Below, in pieces: positions 3,501 through 25,212 of a stretch of DNA of 64,000 nucleotides (positions within the stretch are counted from its first letter, which is position 1; each line of letters starts with the position of its first letter). The position numbers and the translations under genes are program-made. The stretch is taken from positions 151,631 to 215,630 of the forward strand of contig CAYZGK010000001.1 in NCBI GenBank assembly GCA_964478025.1, read 5' to 3'. The DNA comes from an uncultured Christensenella sp. (GTDB lineage: Bacteria; Bacillota; Clostridia; Christensenellales; UBA3700). Under the pieces are notes generated by a model. That model searched no databases, had not been told where the DNA came from, and worked only from the letters and a program-made list of their open reading frames with translations.

Positions 3501-6500
3501 GACACAACAAAAACAGAACTTACAAATGTCTTTGCTTTAAATTACTCAGAGTATTTAGTTTACTATGCAACAATGGAATATTGTCCAGTTTCAGTAAAGA
3601 TTAACTTTATTCCAGTATTTGGTGCTTCAGGAGCTTACTTACAATATTCTTATGAACAAGATGAAAATAATGAAGATATTTGGGTAAATTACGAAAAAGA
3701 AATTAAATCTAATCAAGCAAATACATTCATTCTAGATTTTGAAGTAACAAATGCAACATTTAAAATGAGACTTGTCTCAACTGAGGGTATTTACGCAACA
3801 TCTTATGCAAATGGTGATGGTTACGTAACTAATGGTGCTAGTGATTATGAAGAATCTATAAGATGGACAATTAACGTAGTAATTGCTTATATGAGTATTA
3901 CACTAGATAATATTTATTATGGAGATAAAGCCTTATCTTCAATGACAAGTGATGAACTTGGTAATTTATTTAGTAAGAACTATGATGCAAAGGATGTGTC
4001 AGATATTCCTTTATCTGTTAAAGTTTATAAAGATGGAACAAATGATGAATTAAATTCAACAACTACAATTTTATATTCTGATAAGTATTCGTTCGCATCT
4101 CCAGATATTTTAACTGATTATACAAAGGTAACAGCAGTCTATTCTTCAGCAAACGCTGGTAGTAGACAAATATCTATATCAGTTGAAGGAACGGATGCTT
4201 ATGAGGGTAAATATTTATTCTTCTTTACAGATGGTAGAGAATTTACAGATTTTACTATACTTTTAAAAGAGAGTAAGGTTTATGACCAAATAACAACAAC
4301 TATATCTCCATCTACAATTAATGTAGTAATGGCAAGTTATACAGATCAACTTAAATCATCTTATGTTTATGGAACAGAAATTCCAACAACTATAAAGGTA
4401 GATGGTGAAGCAGGGGATGTAGTTACACTAAAGATTGTTTCAGATGCACAATGTACATATGAAAATGGAAAAATAGTAGCATATCCAAATGTAGGAACAT
4501 ATACAGTTTCCGCTGATTTTATTAAAGATGAAGGAAACTATGTATTAAATGTTACAAGTTCAGATATAGTAATTAGTCAAAAACCAGTTTCTGTATTAAC
4601 AACATTAGATGGAGTTAAAGGATATTCTCCAACGCTAACATATGATGGAGTGTCTCATAAGATAGAGGGAACATATACAGACGTATTTGGTGAAACGAAA
4701 AATGCTACGATAAAATACTATTTAGATACAGATTGTGCTAATTTAGCATCTGAAGATGTTATAAGTGTAATAAATGTATATTATGTTAAATTAACTATTG
4801 ATGATGAAAACTATTCAGTAAGTAATTCTAAAAACCCAATAACATTCTCAATTGTTAAGGGTTATCTATCTTTAGATTTAACAGCACAAACTTATGAATA
4901 TTCAGGATATAGTATCCCATTTGAATTAAAATCAACATCAGGAGTTGAAATAAAGAGTAATGACACATTTGACCCTGCTGTAGATGTATGTAAAATGGAT
5001 GATTTTACTATTTCCTACTACTTAGTTGTAAATAATGTTCCTTCATCTACAAAGCTAGAGAGCATTTATGCTGTAGGAAAATATTTAGTACAAATAGAAA
5101 TTAAGAATAATGATTATTTCTATGATCAATCTTATGCTGATACATATATTGAGATAACAAAAGCTAAAACGAGTATGAGTATTGATGATGTAACTATAAC
5201 TTATGATGGAGAATCACATACTTATGACTATACATTAGGAAATGTATTAGTTAGCGGTATAAGTTCAAAAACTACTGTTGTAGGTGAGTGGGAAGGTATT
5301 ACTCAATACTATACATACAATAATGGAGTTATGAATAGAAGTAGTGATTTAACAGATATTCTTCAAATACAAGTATTTGATGAGGTTACTAGAAAATATG
5401 TAACAGTAAATGAGTTGTCTCCAGCAAACTTTACTGATGCAGGAACTTATATATTCAAAGTTTCATTCCTTGGAGATAATAACTTTGATGCATCTTCAAA
5501 GCAAGTTAATTTAATTATTGAAGAAGCAAGTATGGAAGGCATAACATTTGAAGATGTTAAAACATACTATGGGGGAGCTGATAATTATTACCCATTTATA
5601 ATTGATGATTCAGAAAATTCTTCATTAAAGAAATATTTAGATATGGGTGCAGAACTTATATATAGATATAATGCAGAAGAGTATAAATATGGAACAGAAG
5701 CCTACACAGGAACTTACATAACTGATGAGAGTGGCAAGGAATCATTAGATCAAAAAGGATACTTACAATTATTCTCAGAAGTTAACACATATACTGTTCT
5801 TGCAATAGTTACTCTTGAAAACTATAAGACATTACAACTTACAGCAACATTAACTATTGATAAAACAAAAATTGAAGGCATTATGCCAGTTGAAGTTAAT
5901 AATGTTGAATACGATGGTGCATTCCATCCTGGGCAATTTACAGGCTTTGATTTAGATGATAATGGTAATATGAAGGTTTCATACTTATCTGGTGGAGAAT
6001 CTTCAAAGATTATAGACAAGGTATGGTATAAGGGAGTTGCAGTAGATGTAGAATATGACGATGAGGCTTGTCCATACACAGCAGGCACTCACTTTGGTAA
6101 AATAACATTTACCTCAACTGAGTATGCAACAGAAACTATTCAAGTTAAAGTTGTAATTTCTCAAAAGAAAGTAACAGAGATAGACTTCTCATGGTTATCT
6201 AGTATGATAAATAAAATAAATTCTTCTACAGATTTAAGCAACCTTTATGCTGAGTATGATAAAAATGGAGATACTGATTATGTATCTTTCGAGTACTATA
6301 ACGAAAGTGGAGAAAAAGTTGAACTTGATGAAGATGGTTGTTTGCCAGCAGGTGATTACACAATAAAGATGGTATTTGATGATGCTAACTTCTGCTCTGA
6401 TGTAACAGCAACAATAACAATAGCTCAAGCATCAAACAATGGTTCAACAACTACAACAAATAAAGGTGGAGATTCTAGTGGTGATAGTAGTGGTGGAATT

Positions 6501-13177: not shown

Positions 13178-13323
13178 TACAAGTTTTACTAACTTTTTAG
13201 GTGCTTCAAATACAAGTTTTACTAGGTTTTTATTGTCAATATTTACAAGTTTTACTACATTTTTAAACTGTATATTTACAAGTTTTGCTAAATTTGGGTG
13301 TATTGGTTAAATAAGTTTAGTTA
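13178..13323. repeat. five in-phase copies of a 14-bp box at exactly 33-bp spacing
   Basis: TACAAGTTTTACTA at 13178, 13211 and 13244; TACAAGTTTTGCTA at 13277; degenerate AATAAGTTTAGTTA at 13310. Each box is followed by NN-TTTTT/TTTGG. Confidence 0.9.
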
Positions 13324-13343: not shown

Positions 13344-14483
13344 ATGGAAAAACGCGTTGTAGTAATAGGTGGTGGAATAAGCGGAATTATAACTTCTCTT
13401 GAACTTAAGAAAAGAGGAGTAGATGTTTGTTTAATTGAGGCAAAAGATAGACTTGGAAAGAAAATATTGGCATCCGGAAATGGAAAGTGCAATATTTTAA
13501 ATAGAAATTTAAACGCTTCGTTTTATAATACGGATTTTGTTAAATATGCCATTGAAAAATATAACTTTGATGTTCTATATAATTATTATTCAAATCTAGG
13601 CATTATGCTTAGAGAAGATGAAGAGGGAAGAGTATATCCTTATTCGGAAAGCTCAAATACAATATTAAATGCTCTTTTAGACCAATTATCCCTATATAAA
13701 GTAGATGTTTTTTTAAATGAAGAAGTTAAATCTATAAAAAAAGAAAACGAAGGATTTATTGTAAAAACAACAAAAAACCAAATTAAAACAGATAAAATAG
13801 TACTATCCACAGGCTCAAATGCATCGTTTGGAATTAATTCTCACTATTTATTAGGCGATTTAGGGCAAAAAACAACTAAACTTAAACAAACACTTGTTCC
13901 ACTTAAAACAAAGGCTATAATTGGCGCTAACGGGGTAAGAGCTAAAGTTAAATTATCTTTATATATAGAAAACGAACTAATATTTAGTGAAGATGGAGAA
14001 GTTTTATTTAAAGAAAGGGCCATATCTGGCATTTTAGCATTTAAAGCTTCTATATATTTATCTAGGTGGATGGTAAAAAATAATAAGGATGAAGTTAATG
14101 CATTTGCTATGCTTGATTTTGTTCCAAATATGAATGTAGATGAATTAAGAGATTATTTAAATAATTCTAAACTTTCAAATCCGCTTTTTGGTGTTGTTCA
14201 TAAAGCTATAGCTCAAAATATTAAAGGAAAGGATATTGCATTTGAATTAAAAAATTATAAGTGTAAAATAGATGGCCTTACAAATCTTGAAAATGCACAA
14301 GTTATGTCAGGTGGCCTTGATGTTAACTTTTTTGATGATAAAACTTATATGTCAAAAACATTAAATAATGTTTATGCATGCGGCGAAGTTTTAGATGTGG
14401 ATGGTCAGTGTGGTGGATATAACTTATCCTTCGCACTTGCATCGTCATTATGTGTTGTAGATAGTATATGCAAATCAAAGTAA
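13344..14483 (+). CDS. HI0933/BaiN-like FAD flavoprotein
   Basis: VVVIGGGISGI dinucleotide-binding motif followed by GKKILASGNGKCNILN, the HI0933-family signature. Confidence 0.8.
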   Translation: MEKRVVVIGGGISGIITSLELKKRGVDVCLIEAKDRLGKKILASGNGKCNILNRNLNASFYNTDFVKYAIEKYNFDVLYNYYSNLGIMLREDEEGRVYPYSESSNTILNALLDQLSLYKVDVFLNEEVKSIKKENEGFIVKTTKNQIKTDKIVLSTGSNASFGINSHYLLGDLGQKTTKLKQTLVPLKTKAIIGANGVRAKVKLSLYIENELIFSEDGEVLFKERAISGILAFKASIYLSRWMVKNNKDEVNAFAMLDFVPNMNVDELRDYLNNSKLSNPLFGVVHKAIAQNIKGKDIAFELKNYKCKIDGLTNLENAQVMSGGLDVNFFDDKTYMSKTLNNVYACGEVLDVDGQCGGYNLSFALASSLCVVDSICKSK

Positions 14484-16051
14484 ATGATATAAAATTACCT
14501 ATAATTCATTCTAAATTAGATATTGAAAAAGTTTTATCTAATACGCTTCGTGTAAAGCCAAGTTCAATTAAAAATTATAAGATTTTAAAAGAATCAGTAG
14601 ATTCAAGAAAAAAAGAAATAAATTATGTTTACTCTCTTGCAGTTGAGATATCTGATGATGAGAAAAAATTAAGTAAAAATCCAAAATATTCAAAATATGT
14701 AGAACAGGACTTTACATTAGATTTTTTACTAAAGTCATACAATAGAAAAAATACTAAATTAAGACCTATTGTTGTAGGCTCTGGCCCTTGTGGAATGTTT
14801 GCTGCGTTAACTCTTGCCAAGGCAGGATTAAAACCTATAATTATAGAAAGAGGAAAATCTGTTGACGAAAGAAAACAAAGCGTAAATGTATTTAATGAAA
14901 AGGGTATTTTAGATAAAGAATGTAATATTCAATTTGGAGAAGGTGGAGCTGGTACTTTTTCTGATGGAAAATTAAATACAGGTACTTCATCTTATCTTAT
15001 AAACACAGTATTAAAAGAGTTTGTGCTTCATGGAGCTCAATCAAATATTTTATATGAAGCAAAGCCACATATTGGTACAGACGTTTTAATAAATGTTGTT
15101 AAAAACATAAGAGAAGATATAGAAAAATTAGGTGGAGAATACCTTTTTAGTACAAAACTTGTTGATATAAAACAAAATGTAGGAAACTTAGAGTCTATTA
15201 TTGTTGAAAGACAAGGAAATAGAGAAGAAATAAAAACTAATTTATGTATACTTGCAATAGGCCATAGTGCAAGAGATACTTTTGAAATGTTATCTAGTAA
15301 GGTTTTAATGGAACAAAAAGCTTTTTCTATTGGTGTTAGAGTTGAACATTTACAAAAGGATATATCACTTGCTCAATATGGAGATAAATATACACTTTTA
15401 AAGCCTGCTTCATATAAACTTGCCTGCCATTTAGATAATAATAGGAGTTGTTACACATTCTGTATGTGCCCAGGCGGCTATGTTGTAGCTGCTACCTCTG
15501 AAGAGGAAATGGTAGTTACAAATGGTATGAGTTTATCTAAAAGAGATGGAATTAATGCAAACTCTGCACTATTAGTTGGGGTAAATCCATCGGATTTTAA
15601 AAGTGATAACGTACTAGCTGGCGTAGAGTTTCAAAGAAAATATGAAAAACTTGCATATAAAATAGGTGGTAATTACAAAGCTCCTTGTCAAAGATATGAA
15701 GATTTAAAAAATAAAAAAATATCTACAAACTTTAATACAATAAAACCTACATATCCATTAGGTGTAGTGGAGGCTGATTTAAGAGAATGCCTTCCAAATT
15801 ATGTAATAGAATCTTTATTAAAAGCCATGCCTATATTTGATAGTAAAATAAAAGGTTTTGCTAATCCAGATACAATATTTACAGGTGTAGAAACAAGATC
15901 TTCAAGCCCTGTTAGGATTATGAGAGATAGAAATTATTCAAGTTCTATAAAAGGTTTAATGCCATGTGGAGAAGGCGCTGGATATGCGGGCGGAATAATG
16001 TCTGCCGCTGTTGATGGTATTAATGCTGCACTTATGATTCTTTCTTCATAG
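14468..16051 (+). CDS. FAD-dependent dehydrogenase of the COG2509 type (uncharacterised)
   Basis: N-terminal IKLPI.H segment, VVGSGPCGMFAAL...ERG Rossmann motif, GEGAGYAGGI near the C-terminus. Overlaps the upstream gene by 16 nt. Confidence 0.8.
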   Translation: MQIKVNDIKLPIIHSKLDIEKVLSNTLRVKPSSIKNYKILKESVDSRKKEINYVYSLAVEISDDEKKLSKNPKYSKYVEQDFTLDFLLKSYNRKNTKLRPIVVGSGPCGMFAALTLAKAGLKPIIIERGKSVDERKQSVNVFNEKGILDKECNIQFGEGGAGTFSDGKLNTGTSSYLINTVLKEFVLHGAQSNILYEAKPHIGTDVLINVVKNIREDIEKLGGEYLFSTKLVDIKQNVGNLESIIVERQGNREEIKTNLCILAIGHSARDTFEMLSSKVLMEQKAFSIGVRVEHLQKDISLAQYGDKYTLLKPASYKLACHLDNNRSCYTFCMCPGGYVVAATSEEEMVVTNGMSLSKRDGINANSALLVGVNPSDFKSDNVLAGVEFQRKYEKLAYKIGGNYKAPCQRYEDLKNKKISTNFNTIKPTYPLGVVEADLRECLPNYVIESLLKAMPIFDSKIKGFANPDTIFTGVETRSSSPVRIMRDRNYSSSIKGLMPCGEGAGYAGGIMSAAVDGINAALMILSS

Positions 16052-16248
16052 TATATTTCTAATTTTCAATTATTAATATGTTTACTTTCGTACCAAAATT
16101 ATCAACTTTTATGGTACGAAAATAAACAATAGATTTTGGATAAAATAGATTGCTTATTTGTTTATGCTCAATTTTTTTGTTAAAAATTAATACCATGTTA
16201 CCCTCTTAATTACCATTTTTGAAATTTATCTTATCATTATGAATGTAA

Positions 16249-16326
16249 TTGATAGGATATATGATATGATAAAATAAAAAAAATTGACGAATGATAGGAT
16301 AAATGATATGATAAATGATAGGATAA
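16249..16326. promoter_or_regulatory. 12-bp tandem repeats (ATGATAGGATAA / ATGATATGATAA) overlapping the promoter of the first COG2865 gene
   Basis: Units at 16249, 16261, 16291, 16303 and 16315. TTGACG 16284-16289, 17-nt spacer, TATGAT 16307-16312 lies inside the repeats. Confidence 0.75.
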
Positions 16327-16347
16327 AACAAAAAGAGAGGTATTAAT

Positions 16348-17688
16348 ATGATTGAGTCAGAAACATTAGAATTAAAGAAATCATTATCGCAATTAAGAGA
16401 AGGTATAATCTCTTTAAGTTCAATGCTTAATAAGAAAAAAGAAGGAACAGTAATATTTGGTATAAATGACGATTCAAGGCTTGTAGGTATTACTATTGGA
16501 AAGAAAACTAAGGCGGATATTACTCATGAGATTCAAAACAATCTAAAGCCATTGCCTTCTACAATTAAAATTGATGAAATTGTTGAAGATAATAAAAATA
16601 TCATTAAAGTATATGTTAAAGGTGAAGATACACCATATTCAGCTTATGGAAGATATTACATAAGAATTAATGATTCGGATATAGTAATGGATTCGAATCA
16701 GCTTCAAAGATTTTTTGGAGAGAAAGAAGATAATTATCTTAAATGGGAACAAACGGAAACTCAATATGGTATAGATGATATAAATGAAGATTTGTTGATT
16801 GATTGTATTCGTACTGCAAACGAAAAAGGGAGATTAGAATATGTTTATAGAAATCCTAAAGAAGCATTGAGTAAATTAGGTTTAATAACTTTTAATGATA
16901 AATTAAATAATGCGGGATTGTTTTTATTTGGTAATAATAAACCTCTAACAATTAAAGAGGCAAATTATCCTACAGATAATAGAACTGAATTTGGAGAAAT
17001 AAAGGAATTTAAAGGGAATATTATTGAGTGTATCAAGGAAGCAGTATCATATATTCAAAACCATATTTCGTTTAAATCTAATATTGTTGGTATTCAACGA
17101 GAAGAGATACCAGAAATTCCAGTAAGGGCGATAAGGGAGATAGTTGTTAACTCATTTGCACATTGTTCTTATGCAAGGGTAGGTGATTATAATCAATATG
17201 TGATTTATAAATCATCAGTTAGGATTTATAATCCAGGTTCAATAATTAAAGGAATAGATCCCATAAACTTTGCCTCTGGGAAGGTGGGCAGTAAAATAAG
17301 AAATCTATTGATTGCTTCGACATTGTTTAAGTATGGATATATTGATGCCTTTGGAACTGGTTTTGATAGAACTTTTACATTGTGTAGTCAAAATGACGTT
17401 GAATATAAGTATATTGAGGATGATTTTGGTTTTACATTTGTATTTGAAAGAAAAAAGGATTTTTTAAATGATAGGATAAATGATAGGATAAATGATAGGA
17501 TAAATGATTTAGATGAACAAATTAAAAAATTAATTATTGAAAATAAGTATATTACTATTTCTGAATTATCTGACATAACTATAAAATCGGTGCCTACAAT
17601 TAATAGACATTTGAATAATCTTTTAAAATCTAAAGTTATAAGAAGAGTTGGCTCAAGAAAAACTGGATATTGGGAAGTCTTAAAGTAA
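16348..17688 (+). CDS. COG2865-type protein 1: AlbA_2/Schlafen-like N-domain + HATPase_c_4-like domain + C-terminal winged HTH
   Basis: GAGAGG RBS 7 nt upstream. N-terminus ESETLELKKS...VIFGI.D.G.VVGI is typical of AlbA_2. Central AIREIVVNSFAHCSY is ATPase-like. C-terminus ISELSDIT.KSVPTINRHLNNLLKSKVIRRVGSRKTGYWEV is a wHTH. Confidence 0.75.
   Translation: MIESETLELKKSLSQLREGIISLSSMLNKKKEGTVIFGINDDSRLVGITIGKKTKADITHEIQNNLKPLPSTIKIDEIVEDNKNIIKVYVKGEDTPYSAYGRYYIRINDSDIVMDSNQLQRFFGEKEDNYLKWEQTETQYGIDDINEDLLIDCIRTANEKGRLEYVYRNPKEALSKLGLITFNDKLNNAGLFLFGNNKPLTIKEANYPTDNRTEFGEIKEFKGNIIECIKEAVSYIQNHISFKSNIVGIQREEIPEIPVRAIREIVVNSFAHCSYARVGDYNQYVIYKSSVRIYNPGSIIKGIDPINFASGKVGSKIRNLLIASTLFKYGYIDAFGTGFDRTFTLCSQNDVEYKYIEDDFGFTFVFERKKDFLNDRINDRINDRINDLDEQIKKLIIENKYITISELSDITIKSVPTINRHLNNLLKSKVIRRVGSRKTGYWEVLK
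17468..17503 (+). repeat. three perfect tandem copies of ATGATAGGATAA inside the COG2865-1 coding sequence (encodes DRIN x3)
   Basis: Read directly. Same 12-mer as in the promoter at 16291 and 16315. Confidence 0.95.
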
Positions 17689-17874
17689 AATGAATTTATA
17701 TCTTTAAATTATTTGTATTGGTTTTATTGACTTTTTTTTCTAATATTACAAAAATTTTTAGAATAAAAGTCAACAACTAGTGCTTTTAACTTTTAGTGTT
17801 AACTAGTATTTTCTTTTGTTGTTATATAAAATGCGCGTATGTTATAATATTTTATATTTATAGGAGATACTACT

Positions 17875-19629
17875 TTGGATAACGAAGAATTAAACCAAAA
17901 TGAGTCAATTGAATTTTCAAAAGATTCTACACCTAGTAAAAAAGTAAGCGTATGGAAGGATGCTAGAAAAAGGGCATCTATAATTTCCGCAATTATTGTT
18001 TTTTGTATAATATTTGCGTTTACTATGGTTCTTTGGTTGTATTTCTTTATCATTAATTATCCAACAGTTACAGTAACTCATAAAAACATTTCAGATTTAA
18101 AAAAGACTTATACGCTTGATTCAACAAATGAGTATATTGCAAATATAAATTATGAAGATTATTTATATGATACAACAACTATTTGGTCTCAAATTAAAGA
18201 TTTGTTTATTCATTCATATAATTTGTCTGAAGAAGGAGTGTTAGAAACAAATAATCCTGTTCAAAATGGTGACATTATAAATAGTTTAATTGAGGACTCT
18301 TCAGGTAGTTTAATTATCTATGTGGATGGAAACTATAAGACAACTCCAATTAAACTTAAAAGTAATGTAACAATTGTTATTAATGAAGAATGCTCTTTAA
18401 TTGGGCCTACTTATCAAGAATGTGTTGAATACAATATTGATGTTGCAAATAAAGGTATTTTATATGCAGAGGGAACTCTAGAAAAGAATGTTTCAAATAT
18501 AAAAATATATGGTCCAGGTTCAATTGTAAGTAATGGAGCAACTTACACAGATGAAGCTGAGGATTCTTCTATCCTGCAACCACTTGAAAAGTTTAATTTA
18601 AAAACAAGAGTACTTCAGGCTCGAAAGAGAATAAGAAAAGCAAAGAAAGTTGGAGATGTAGAAGTATCAAGACCTCATGCTTTATATTTTGCTAATTGTG
18701 AAAATATTGATATAGAATCTGTTCTAATTAAAGATTCTGCAAATTGGACTTGTAAGTTTGTAGATAGTAAAGATATAAGTATAGCAGATAGTGTTATAGA
18801 CAATAACCTTCATGTTGCTAATGCAGATGGATTAGATTTTGTAAGTTGTCAATCAGTAGATGTAAAACATGTATTTGTGGCAACAGCTGATGATGGTTTA
18901 TGTATTAAAGCAAATGGGACTAAAGTTTGTAAAAATATAACATTTAATAGATGTACAGTTATCTCTATGGCAAATTGCTTTAAAATAGGAACAGAAACCA
19001 CACAAGAAATAAAAAATATAGATTGTGTTAATTGTTATTTTGCAATGCCAGAAGGTGTGGTTGGCGGATATGCAGGAATTGCTATAGAATCAGCGGATGG
19101 CTCAAATATTTATGATGTAAATGTGGATAATATTTATATGGAAGGTATTTCAGCAACATTCTTGATTTGGTTAGGATCAAGATTAAATACATATCCAGGC
19201 TCAATTGGTGAAGTAGGAAGTATAAGTAAAATAACTATTTCTAATGTAGTTTCTAATAACATAGAAATGCCAAGTGCAGTAACTGGTTGTATTTATAATG
19301 ATGTAACATATAGAGTAGAAAATGTTACAATAGCTAACTATAAAGCTACATATAGAAATACACAAGAGGAATTAGATGTTGGAGATGTTCAATATGAAGA
19401 AGGAATGAATGGTTATCCTGAAATCACAAGAGTTATTCATTCTTATTTAATATCTCACGAATTAAGTGTTTATAAGGATTTGCCAGTATATGGAGTATTT
19501 GCAAGACACGTATCAGGTATTACATTAAATAATGTAAATATAGAATCTAGGACATGTTCTACATTAAAAAGAGATAATATAAAAGAAGCAGCAGATAGAT
19601 ACGATTTAATTGATGCTGAGGTTAAATAG
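17875..19629 (+). CDS. membrane-anchored right-handed beta-helix protein, GH28/pectin-lyase-fold like
   Basis: AGGAG 17862-17866, TTG start. N-terminal cytoplasmic tail plus TM (IISAIIVFCIIFAFTMVLWLYFFI). NADGLDF, ADDGLCIKA and CFKIGTE resemble GH28 NTDG / GDDC.a.K / G.E blocks. TGtTATAAT extended -10 at 17840-17848. Confidence 0.65.
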   Translation: MDNEELNQNESIEFSKDSTPSKKVSVWKDARKRASIISAIIVFCIIFAFTMVLWLYFFIINYPTVTVTHKNISDLKKTYTLDSTNEYIANINYEDYLYDTTTIWSQIKDLFIHSYNLSEEGVLETNNPVQNGDIINSLIEDSSGSLIIYVDGNYKTTPIKLKSNVTIVINEECSLIGPTYQECVEYNIDVANKGILYAEGTLEKNVSNIKIYGPGSIVSNGATYTDEAEDSSILQPLEKFNLKTRVLQARKRIRKAKKVGDVEVSRPHALYFANCENIDIESVLIKDSANWTCKFVDSKDISIADSVIDNNLHVANADGLDFVSCQSVDVKHVFVATADDGLCIKANGTKVCKNITFNRCTVISMANCFKIGTETTQEIKNIDCVNCYFAMPEGVVGGYAGIAIESADGSNIYDVNVDNIYMEGISATFLIWLGSRLNTYPGSIGEVGSISKITISNVVSNNIEMPSAVTGCIYNDVTYRVENVTIANYKATYRNTQEELDVGDVQYEEGMNGYPEITRVIHSYLISHELSVYKDLPVYGVFARHVSGITLNNVNIESRTCSTLKRDNIKEAADRYDLIDAEVK

Positions 19630-23767: not shown

Positions 23768-23872
23768 TTAATATGCAAAAAATATTGCATATAAAAACAA
23801 AATTAATATGCAAAAAAAGTTGCATATAAAAATGAATTTAATATGCAAAAAAATATTGCATAATAAATTTTA
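23768..23872. repeat. three 35-bp-spaced units, each containing an 8-6-8 palindrome ATATGCAA-N6-TTGCATAT
   Basis: Units start at 23768, 23803 and 23838 (TTAATATGCAAAAAA.TATTGCATATAAAAA). The third unit has a 7-nt spacer and a 7/8 right arm. Confidence 0.9.
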
Positions 23873-23907: not shown

Positions 23908-25212
23908 ATGATTAATTTGGGAAAGGAATCAGAATTAGTAGAATTTAAAAAAAGTACAAGTGAATTAAATGAAGCTATAATTTCCATCTCCGCTATGCTT
24001 AATAAAAACGGAAAAGGGAAAGTTTATTTTGGAGTTAAAAATAATGGAGATGCAATAGGGCAACAAGTTTCAGAAAATACACTTAGAGATATATCTCGAA
24101 AAATATATGAAGATATAAATCCAACAATATATCCAAGTATTAATGAAATGAGTGAAAATCCTGGAGTAATAGAAGTTAGTTTTTCAGGGCTAGATAAACC
24201 TTATTCAGCAAAAGGTAAATTTTATATTAGGGTTTTTGATGAGGATAAACAAATAGAAATTAAAGAGTTATTAAATACTATCTATCATAGTGATTCAAGC
24301 AATGCTGTTTGGGAAAAAATTGAAACAAGCGAAACTGAAGATGATATAGATGAAGATTTGTTAAAAGAGTTTGTTGAAAAGGCAAATAAGTGTGGTAGAA
24401 TCAATGAAAAATATTCTAATAAAACTGAAGTTTTAAATAAATTATGTTTAATGACAAATAATCATATAAACAATGCTGGAAGAGTATTATTTTCAAAAAA
24501 TAAACCTTTAACACTAAAATTAGCCGTATTTGCTTCTGATGAAAAGTTGTCTTTTATAGATATAAATAGAGTCGAAGGAAATATTTTTGAATTAAATGAA
24601 AAGGGTCAAAATTATATAAAAGAACATATTAATTATAAGGCGGAAATTAAAGGAAGAGTAAGGGTTGAAACTCCAGAAATTCCGGAAGAAGTAATTAGAG
24701 AGGCTGTGCTTAATAGTCTTTGTCATTCTTCTTTTAGTGAATCAATTAATAATGAGATTTATATTACCCCTTCAAAAGTATCAATTTTTAATCCTGGTGC
24801 TTTTCCTTCAGGTTATGATCCAAAAGATTTTGCATTTAATGGTGTTGAATCGATTTTAAGAAATCCTATTATCTCTCGTGCTTTATATTACTGTAACGAA
24901 ATAGATAGTTGGGCTACTGGATTTAGAAGAATTTTTAAACTTTGTGATTCTAATAATATTAAGATTATGTATCAAAAGAAAAACCAAGGTTTTGAAATTT
25001 CGTTTTATAGATTAAACTCTCAAATCGGTGATATTGAGCAAGAAGTATTAAATCAAATAGCAAATAATCCCAAAATTACAGCTTTAGAATTAGTTGAAAC
25101 TCTAAAAAAATCCCAAAGAACTATTTATAATGTTTTAAAGGAATTAAAAGATAAAGGTATTATTACAAGAGAAGGCTCAAATAGGGATGGGGAATGGAAA
25201 ATTCGAAATTAA
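23908..25212 (+). CDS. COG2865-type protein 2 (paralog of 16348..17688)
   Basis: GAGGGG 23896-23901 then ATG 23908; the GTG at 23875 has no RBS. ESELVEFKKS...VYFGVKNNGDAIG, VIREAVLNSLCHSSF, C-terminal wHTH (ITALELVETLKKSQRTIYNVLKELKDKGIITREG). Confidence 0.75.
   Translation: MINLGKESELVEFKKSTSELNEAIISISAMLNKNGKGKVYFGVKNNGDAIGQQVSENTLRDISRKIYEDINPTIYPSINEMSENPGVIEVSFSGLDKPYSAKGKFYIRVFDEDKQIEIKELLNTIYHSDSSNAVWEKIETSETEDDIDEDLLKEFVEKANKCGRINEKYSNKTEVLNKLCLMTNNHINNAGRVLFSKNKPLTLKLAVFASDEKLSFIDINRVEGNIFELNEKGQNYIKEHINYKAEIKGRVRVETPEIPEEVIREAVLNSLCHSSFSESINNEIYITPSKVSIFNPGAFPSGYDPKDFAFNGVESILRNPIISRALYYCNEIDSWATGFRRIFKLCDSNNIKIMYQKKNQGFEISFYRLNSQIGDIEQEVLNQIANNPKITALELVETLKKSQRTIYNVLKELKDKGIITREGSNRDGEWKIRN

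Follow-up and report, generated by a model that had tools for sequence, protein, structure and literature searches.

The window analysed here is the whole stretch of 64,000 nucleotides (nt) from an uncultured Christensenella sp., and it contains a gene (16348–17688) in which one 12-mer, ATGATAGGATAA, is tandemly repeated over the promoter and again, in frame, inside the coding sequence. Direct reading of the window finds the five perfect copies that the initial annotation, a note made from the sequence, had placed at the promoter and inside the gene (16291–16302, 16315–16326, 17468–17479, 17480–17491 and 17492–17503). The one-mismatch variants that it gave at 16261 and 16303 are as described (both ATGATATGATAA), and the copy at 16249, which it counted with them, is TTGATAGGATAT and has two mismatches. 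Its inverted half-site at 16231 is indeed an inverted element but not a half: a full inverted 12-mer (TTATCTTATCAT) covers 16226–16237. The repeats are also as unlikely to arise by chance as had been supposed, with 8 matches to ATGATAGGATAA at no more than one mismatch against 1.17 expected from shuffles (maximum 5; 0 of 100 shuffles reach 8). All of these matches lie at this gene and its promoter, with none elsewhere in the 64-kb window. Tandem Repeats Finder calls both arrays (16290–16327, 3.2 copies; 17465–17508, 3.7 copies, 100%), and the likeness between promoter block and coding block spans 57 nt at 82%.

Upstream of the gene, the repeated site overlaps the gene's own predicted promoter, in agreement with the overlap first reported. 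This promoter (16284–16312) consists of TTGACG, a 17-nt spacer and TATGAT (16307–16312) with a TG upstream, matches at 10 of 12 positions and ties for the top regional score with two others; of the three, it is the sole one upstream of the start of this gene. The proximal array reaches from the spacer through the −10 into the region where transcription is predicted to start, and its unit 2, which holds the −10, is the ATG variant, nearer to TATAAT. Further upstream, the inverted copy and the distal units form an inverted-repeat arrangement ahead of the core promoter, and an inverted unit copy also stands just upstream of the −35 in many orthologs. A promoter-like match at 17444–17472 is weak. 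No known RNA family was found in 15500–18500 at E <= 1 apart from a chance match to a small nucleolar RNA.

By Pfam domain set, order and fold, the encoded protein is of the COG2865 type: SLFN_AlbA_2 (residues 3–114), HATPase_c_4 (286–359) and HTH_24 (386–432) follow one another, each scoring above its curated cut-off (55.4, 36.4 and 26.6 bits). No exact match to it is on record. Foldseek gives as the closest structure 3LMM (DIP2311, uncharacterised; E = 4e-20) and, more distantly, SLFN N-domains, the transfer RNA nuclease (tRNase) domain of SAMD9, GHKL ATPase folds and the CA domains of kinases. The protein thus shares domain architecture and fold with COG2865/Schlafen-AlbA_2 proteins (3LMM, eukaryotic SLFN and SAMD9 tRNases), the SLFN/SAMD9 tRNase matches being a likeness of fold only (E = 1e-3 to 1e-4, TM-score ~0.18 over ~150 residues). 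As the initial annotation had read them, the internal units lie in frame in the linker before the C-terminal winged helix-turn-helix (wHTH) and encode N-D-R-I three times; they correspond to residues ~374–385, between HATPase_c_4 and HTH_24. In an AlphaFold2 model (60-sequence alignment; mean predicted local distance difference test score, pLDDT, 79.6), residues 375–385 have a pLDDT below 50 and no secondary structure, and the wHTH is confident. Since the linker is predicted to be disordered, a structural demand on the peptide does not account for the conservation of the array.

Table 1. Features of the repeat-bearing gene and its promoter region (positions in the window).
Feature	Position	Strand	Remark
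Inverted unit copy, TTATCTTATCAT on the + strand (reverse complement of ATGATAAGATAA)	16226–16237	-	1 mismatch
Distal block, two degenerate units, TTGATAGGATAT and ATGATATGATAA	16249–16272	+	sequence
−35-like hexamer TTGACG, 1 nt upstream of the proximal array	16284–16289	+	predicted
Proximal promoter array, three head-to-tail 12-mers (AGG, ATG, AGG variants); proposed operator	16291–16326	+	
Extended −10, TGaTATGAT, inside unit 2	16304–16312	+	TG before the TATGAT hexamer
Coding sequence, 446 residues: Schlafen/AlbA_2, GHKL-like HATPase_c_4, disordered linker, C-terminal wHTH	16348–17688	+	
In-frame array, three perfect 12-mers, encoding (N)DRI-NDRI-NDRI in the interdomain linker	17468–17503	+	same unit as the promoter array
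wHTH-coding part, residues 386–446	17503–17685	+	predicted helices 387–398, 404–411 and 415–427, then wing
Codon AAT, Asn419, the x of the recognition-helix motif T-I-x-R-H	17602–17604	+	co-varies with positions 7–8 of the promoter unit

A protein-pattern search with one genome per species gave 42 orthologous loci (58–89% amino acid identity, loci being designated by L numbers) from gut and rumen metagenome-assembled genomes of Bacilli type. In nearly all of them tandem 12-mers stand upstream of the gene, and the same 12-mer recurs in the linker, where it encodes (NDKI)n or (NDRI)n. The same layout is found at ~55 orthologous loci in unrelated genomic contexts, so that unrelated promoters beside DRIN-type coding repeats, which the initial annotation had considered, are not what the orthologs have: matched promoter and linker arrays are kept. 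At ~10 loci (L001, L002, L003, L008, L009, L011, L012, L020, L032 and L038) the array begins one nt after TTGACA or TTGATA and contains the −10 in unit 2. Orthologs carry 2–6 internal and 2–7 promoter units, and the two arrays are 1165–1200 bp apart in all full loci, a constant distance which is set by protein length and is therefore no independent evidence.

The matching extends to the variable bases of the unit. Both arrays have AAG at most loci, AGA in L004, L005, L007, L010, L013 and L015, AGG in the window, L158 and L379, ACA in L377 and AAA in L023; a C at position 5 (C5) is found in both arrays of L008, L013, L072 and L159. At 25 of 31 protein-ascertained loci, the place in the gene that best matches the promoter unit is the linker window, which makes up 10% of the gene; in 23 of them the match is perfect over 12/12 positions. 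A scan of 185,579 species genomes with the K-type 24-mer returned 115 stretches, almost every one of which belongs to a gene of COG2865 or Fic type or to what is left of such a gene; together with the window shuffles, this rules out the generic AT-rich satellite that the initial annotation had considered. A degenerate NDKINDKI scan found, among the matches listed, other codon spellings in unrelated contexts only. Synteny between the orthologs was not found, the flanking genes differing from species to species. Because these flanking genes are unrelated, the gene and its arrays move as one module, and their joint travel through unrelated contexts argues for a self-contained regulator over a host factor. 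The neighbours are housekeeping or variable genes, and no partition motor or replication initiator is linked.

Is it the peptide or the DNA of the linker that is conserved? We compared codons in peptide-defined repeats with those in the rest of the same genes, using loci found without reference to the DNA motif. Lysine is encoded by AAG at 98% inside the repeats against 22% elsewhere, isoleucine by ATA at 100% against 28%, and asparagine by AAT at 100% against 72%. On codon choice and the predicted structure, the coding arrays are under nucleotide-level constraint and the peptide is structurally unconstrained.

Similar constraint is seen in 80 Runella-type loci (Bacteroidota, Proteobacteria, Verrucomicrobiota and others), which have perfect 12-nt arrays at the same place in most full genes, here encoding TSGK, MSGK, KSSG, EKLG, TVEK, TREK, TTQE, TPVK and other peptides. 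One peptide unit has one DNA spelling in up to seven lineages (TSGK is always AAAACGTCGGGG), and four-fold-degenerate third positions elsewhere in these genes are saturated (identity 0.2–0.45). Inside the arrays, R is AGG at 88% (8% outside), S is TCG at 68% (14%) and L is TTG at 100% (20%). Near-identical DNA, one base apart, is even read in two frames, as AAA AGT TCG GGG (KSSG) and GAA AAG TTG GGT (EKLG). Within 400 nt upstream, an array copy of the unit was found at none of 56 array-bearing Runella-type genes; the only shared 9-mer there, in L174, looks like chance. Distant paralogs (22–30% identity) and a Fic-type protein likewise carry ATGATAAGATAA linker arrays with no upstream copy, their helices reading T-I/V-S-R-Y or T-I-D-R-I. 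A universal rule that promoter array equals linker array is therefore rejected, and the two arrays can exist independently. In the Runella type the helix class tracks the DNA class of the array, which linkage alone could account for. A BLAST search of plasmids with (AAAACGTCGGGG)x4 gave no match. In four loci of this type (L185, L192, L219 and L239) an inverted unit copy abuts the coding array, for example CCCCGACGTTT-ctgaaa-AAACGTCGGGG, a potential hairpin or palindromic half-site inside the open reading frame (ORF). The locus L140 has the same (NDKI)3 array (2183–2218 on the + strand; reverse-strand 2233–2268) and wHTH behind an N-terminal part that is Fic-like by eye, and the array-wHTH module may be common to several effector families.

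Matched arrays of an unrelated unit were found in a second subfamily. The homolog on a Mycoplasmopsis arginini plasmid (L160; 34% identity) has the linker NVTL-NVTK-DVTS-DVTK, with the core ATGTCAC four times at a period of 12; its promoter carries four 12-periodic GTGACA(T/A) units, the last at the extended −10. In 61 metagenomic relatives of this type there are 2–11 promoter units, and GTGACA lies 17 nt upstream of TATAAT. The linker arrays of this subfamily 2 are in most cases the reverse complement of the promoter units, and the variable bases co-vary: promoter ACTAGTGACA goes with linker GTCACTAGT in L311, ACAGTGACATTT with AAATGTCACTGT in L321 and L323–L325, GTGCCA with TGGCAC in L318, CCTGGACATTT with AAATGTCCAG in L331, and TAGAGTGACA with TGTCACTCTA in L333. 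The orientation is direct in L335–L340, with 13 identical nucleotides in L340. The best in-gene match falls in the linker window at 7 of 11 loci; L319/L320, L329 and L339 are exceptions to the matching, and L348–L357 have promoter arrays alone. Compared at the sequence level, subfamily 2 is an independent replicate of promoter/linker matching with an unrelated unit, GTGACAT. Since inverted arrays cannot yield deletions, matching in this subfamily is not kept for the sake of deletion. The M. arginini plasmid locus and an Arcobacter plasmid locus (L163) are distant homologs inside type I restriction-modification operons, directly upstream of hsdR, and there an internal array could modulate read-through into hsdR.

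The recognition helix of the wHTH has the form K-S-x-P-T-I-[x]-R-H, and its bracketed residue, Asn419 in the window, tracks positions 7–8 of the promoter unit. Where the unit has AG (ATGATA-AG-ATAA), x is H or Y in 43 proteins and Q or N in none; where it has GA, GG, TA or CA, x is Q or N in 12 and H or Y in 1 (Fisher p = 2e-11 for unit class against residue class, uncorrected for phylogeny). A neighbor-joining tree of the N-terminal 355 residues, from which wHTH and arrays were excluded, requires a minimum of 9 changes in unit class and of 8 in residue class; unit and residue agree at 55 of its 56 tips, a pattern which implies ~8 independent co-transitions of unit and residue 419. As a prediction test, four proteins were picked solely for having Q or N at x, and all four proved to have non-AG promoter units (GA, CA/TA, GA and GG). 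It is the promoter array, and not that of the linker, which residue 419 follows: in L159 x is H, the promoter unit AAG and the linker unit AGG, and L376, L017 and L021 still obey the rule with the linker array absent. The case for the 12-mer as a site of the wHTH itself rests chiefly on this covariation.

The window also holds a control. A paralog at 23908–25212 (434 residues, 38% identity, same Pfam architecture) has a different recognition helix, RTIYNVL, and lacks exactly the 12-residue DRIN stretch. Its upstream repeats differ as well: at 23768–23867 are three 35-nt units with the palindrome ATATGCAA-N6-TTGCATAT (2 perfect, 0.13 expected), and on this sequence evidence it looks like an orthogonal autoregulated paralog.

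What, then, is the function of the arrays? We propose that the protein, through its C-terminal wHTH, recognises the 12-mer ATGATA-NN-ATAA as its cognate site and so regulates its own gene negatively, and that the in-frame copy is the same site in the linker, plausibly a second operator; we put the probability of this reading at about 0.6. The initial annotation had already suggested the 12-mer as an operator for the wHTH of the same protein, and matched arrays, covariation at residue 419 and the four correct predictions lend that suggestion strong comparative support. The operator would comprise the proximal array, which begins a single nt past the −35 and includes the extended −10, together with the distal units and the inverted copy. 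Because the array covers the promoter core, bound protein should occlude RNA polymerase, and the gene would thereby be negatively autoregulated. Where the same site recurs in frame, in the linker DNA that directly precedes the wHTH-coding segment, it would be kept by selection on nucleotides and not on the peptide. Some 1.17 kb downstream of the promoter, the coding array could act as a second operator cluster, either by looping between a pair of wHTHs dimerised through the GHKL domain or as a roadblock. Promoter array, linker array and recognition helix would evolve in concert, and slippage and inter-array recombination would produce copy-number changes and deletions as a side effect. Alternatively to a role as auxiliary operator (looping or roadblock), the internal copy may be what remains of an operator that was taken into the coding sequence when two genes fused. 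Physical binding, the sign of the regulation and any function of the internal array are what we infer from these comparisons.

Several points weigh against this reading. The whole support for an operator is comparative, and the association of helix residue with unit class was tested without formal phylogenetic correction, on a crude neighbor-joining tree that recombination could distort. Distant paralogs with the same AAG unit have S or D at x, not H or Y. Linker arrays occur without promoter copies in these paralogs and in the Runella-type subfamily, which leaves the role of an internal-only array unexplained. Conversely, ~12 loci keep the promoter array with the linker array lost, so that the internal copy is dispensable there, and L126, L038 and L024/L025 are exceptions to the pattern, as are L319/L320 in subfamily 2. 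Gene conversion alone could keep both arrays identical. Finally, each unit resembles an extended −10 (TGnTAAGAT) and the subfamily 2 unit a −35 (GTGACA); part of the conservation of the promoter arrays may therefore reflect promoter function.

A wider version of this reading takes in the whole family. In this version, a 'translated operator', COG2865 genes in general, and the gene of at least one Fic-type protein that has the same C-terminal module, would carry the wHTH site as 12-nt iterons, in frame and just ahead of the wHTH segment, and translate it into a disordered tetrapeptide-repeat linker. The DNA and not the peptide would be selected, and the site would be bound by the domain encoded next to it on the downstream side, so that it would act in cis as a roadblock, through looping or by self-titration. 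The arrangement may be a relic of an effector gene fused with a downstream autoregulated wHTH gene, and the site would have been copied to the promoter at least twice independently. We hold this version tentatively, at rather less than even odds.

A third explanation grants function to the promoter array alone, as operator or promoter, and takes the coding array for a tolerant disordered linker kept identical by gene conversion or unequal exchange, with no role at the DNA level. Recombination between the arrays does occur, as deletions and copy-number variation attest, and the predicted disorder of the linker, the helix residue of L159, which follows the promoter and not the linker array, and the ~12 lineages that lost the internal array yet keep gene and promoter array all agree with it. 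Against it speak the Runella type, where linker units are DNA-identical across lineages with saturated synonymous sites and there is no promoter donor, and the ATGATAAGATAA linker arrays of the distant paralogs and the Fic-type protein, which have no upstream copy; a conversion-only account of the coding arrays does not generalise to these genes. Moreover, the arrays of subfamily 2, mostly inverted and 24–48 nt long, are poor substrates for frequent conversion. We consider this explanation unlikely.

The second suggestion of the initial annotation was that the repeats allow slippage or recombination, changing linker length or deleting the gene body. The events themselves are real, and both the copy-number variation and the deletion junctions that it proposed to look for were found on comparison with orthologous loci. 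A strain 99% identical to the window (L158) has 2 internal units instead of 3 and an identical promoter. At least 16 of the 115 genome stretches consist of the promoter flank, one array and an intact wHTH frame, the gene body being gone. L142, compared with an L033-type locus, is a precise array-to-array deletion with 98% identity in both flanks, and L049/L125 and L117/L032 are older deletion pairs. Most remnants lack a start codon, and for this reason they resemble decay products and not a programmed isoform. Some loci (L081, + strand 6454–6489 and reverse-strand 1512–1547; L079; L155) have a third array ~90 nt downstream of the stop codon, with the 3′ flank of the promoter array. In L137 (3263–3286), gene body and array are fused to the flank of a third, downstream array and the wHTH is deleted. 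Orphan arrays, often with an inverted copy upstream, stand where the COG2865 gene is gone (L045, L068/L098, L082:2725–2748, L102, L143 and L157), some of them upstream of unrelated ORFs; they are presumably end products of decay.

Could instability itself be the selected function? The arrays would then be a contingency device, with selected slippage altering linker length in 4-residue steps or operator number, or with deletion inactivating a costly Schlafen-like effector. The 2- versus 3-unit polymorphism at 99% identity, the range of unit numbers in orthologs (up to 11 promoter units in subfamily 2), the promoter-array-wHTH remnants with the precise deletion in L142, and the loss of the wHTH through a third array in L137 would all fit. 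Changes in repeat number do not, however, switch the gene: 12-nt units never change the frame, and the promoter is not switched because the −35 to −10 distance is set by units 1 and 2. Deletion is irreversible and leaves remnants mostly devoid of a start codon, and the inverted arrays of subfamily 2, which bar deletion as a selected function there, still keep their matching. Nor does instability predict covariation with the recognition helix. We regard a contingency device as very improbable, and the array-to-array deletions as probably a by-product.

Least probable of all is a different reader of the arrays, be it RNA polymerase and sigma factor (tandem extended −10/−35 boxes), a host global regulator, or translation (pausing at rare AUA/AGG/AGA codons, or feedback via tRNA cleaved by the Schlafen-like domain): TGnTA(A/G)(G/A)AT does lie inside each unit, the subfamily 2 core GTGACA stands 17 nt from TATAAT, array codons are enriched for the rarer synonyms AAG, ATA, AGG, TCG, GGG and TTG, and the N-terminal domain resembles SLFN and SAMD9 tRNases, but such readers do not predict that wHTH residue 419 varies with the unit, a host factor would not be the same in hosts and contexts so varied, an internal promoter would have no product because no conserved in-frame start codon follows the array, and the subfamily 2 promoter copies lie upstream of the −10, untranscribed from the predicted promoter, and are the reverse complement of the coding copies, so that one RNA- or codon-level reader cannot explain both arrays.

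Narrower candidates were rejected individually. An internal promoter giving a wHTH-only isoform would need a start codon, but beyond the array no in-frame ATG, GTG or TTG is conserved, and a start codon is also missing from most of the remnants left by deletion. Programmed frameshifting fails because the units do not fit X XXY YYZ, and a G-quadruplex because G-runs occur in some subfamilies only. Pairing between the 5′ untranslated region and linker RNA is excluded by promoter arrays that lie upstream of or across the −10 and, in subfamily 1, by the arrays being direct repeats.

An autoregulatory operator with a second copy in coding DNA has partial precedents. In the lac (O1/O2) and gal (OE/OI) systems, a promoter operator and an auxiliary operator inside the downstream coding region are bridged by the repressor. 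Similarly to lac O2 and gal OI, the site described here is found at the promoter and again in transcribed coding DNA, and looping or a roadblock is plausible, as the GHKL-like domain could dimerise. Unlike in lac and gal, the intragenic site lies in the regulator's own gene, forms a tandem in-frame array translated into a linker beside the DNA-binding domain and co-evolves with the promoter array; looping is here a proposal. Simple-sequence contingency loci have phase-variable repeats in promoters or ORFs. The present repeats share with them a location in promoter and ORF and copy numbers that differ between near-identical strains, and differ from them in that a 12-nt unit cannot shift the frame, promoter spacing is unaltered by copy number, and the repeat sequence is conserved and co-varies with a DNA-reading residue. 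The tubC centromere of pBtoxis is made of 12-bp units. In TubR-tubC and other iteron systems, a gene is repressed by the HTH protein that it encodes, which binds short direct repeats arranged in blocks upstream (PMC6009700). Here, too, direct repeats stand in blocks over the promoter of the gene for an HTH-type protein thought to bind them, and autorepression is proposed. In contrast to TubR-tubC, neither TubZ or ParA nor a replication partner accompanies the gene, which stands alone on the chromosome among housekeeping genes, and one block is inside the coding sequence. Literature searches (COG2865, AlbA_2/HATPase_c_4, tetrapeptide repeat/wHTH/Fic) found no account of regulation, cognate DNA site or linker repeats for the bacterial proteins, in line with the initial annotation, which knew of no described regulation of this kind.

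The analysis thus offers a predicted cognate DNA site and a candidate specificity-determining residue for a large, widespread and uncharacterised family, the bacterial Schlafen-like COG2865 proteins, and one point mutant suffices to test the H/Y versus Q/N rule. Coding tandem repeats that are conserved as DNA, with a disordered peptide, show clearly how an ORF can harbour a cis-element, and they caution against reading such stretches as 'low-complexity linkers'. Short arrays 1.2 kb apart also explain why gut Bacilli genomes have repeatedly lost the gene body with precision. Pairs of unit and helix (ATGATAAGATAA/TIHRH, GTGACAT/RTVQR, AAAACGTCGGGG/ERSIERN, ACTACCC/DGIKYH and others) may be of use for wHTH recognition codes and for the design of orthogonal repressors. 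If the 'translated operator' proved true, the family would supply a natural series, open to reading, in which wHTH helices and their operators co-evolve pair by pair.

The gene does not belong to a known defence system, since PADLOC gives partial domain matches only, to pAgo, SIR2-APAZ and SoFic models, the last over residues 376–438. A mobile or phage origin was likewise rejected: no relative was found in viral contigs, the window has no tRNA, there is no synteny, and no recombinase adjoins the gene. In a 94%-identical relative (L159:581–2747), AbiEii-like, 198-residue partner and metallophosphatase genes lie between the gene for a flavin adenine dinucleotide (FAD)-dependent protein and the COG2865 gene, and this spot is a variable insertion site. 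FAD/pyridine-nucleotide oxidoreductase genes adjoin the COG2865 gene in otherwise unrelated contexts (13344–16051 in the window; L373:7570–8946; L374:4924–5865), which may be a coincidence. After the stop codon of the upstream FAD-dependent gene in the window is a 20-nt inverted repeat (16079–16128, 90% complementary, 10-nt loop), likely a terminator hairpin, though a simple terminator scan made no call there. A 33-nt tandem repeat (13211–13295; 2.6 copies, 82% matches) lies just upstream of the same FAD-protein gene, which starts at 13344.

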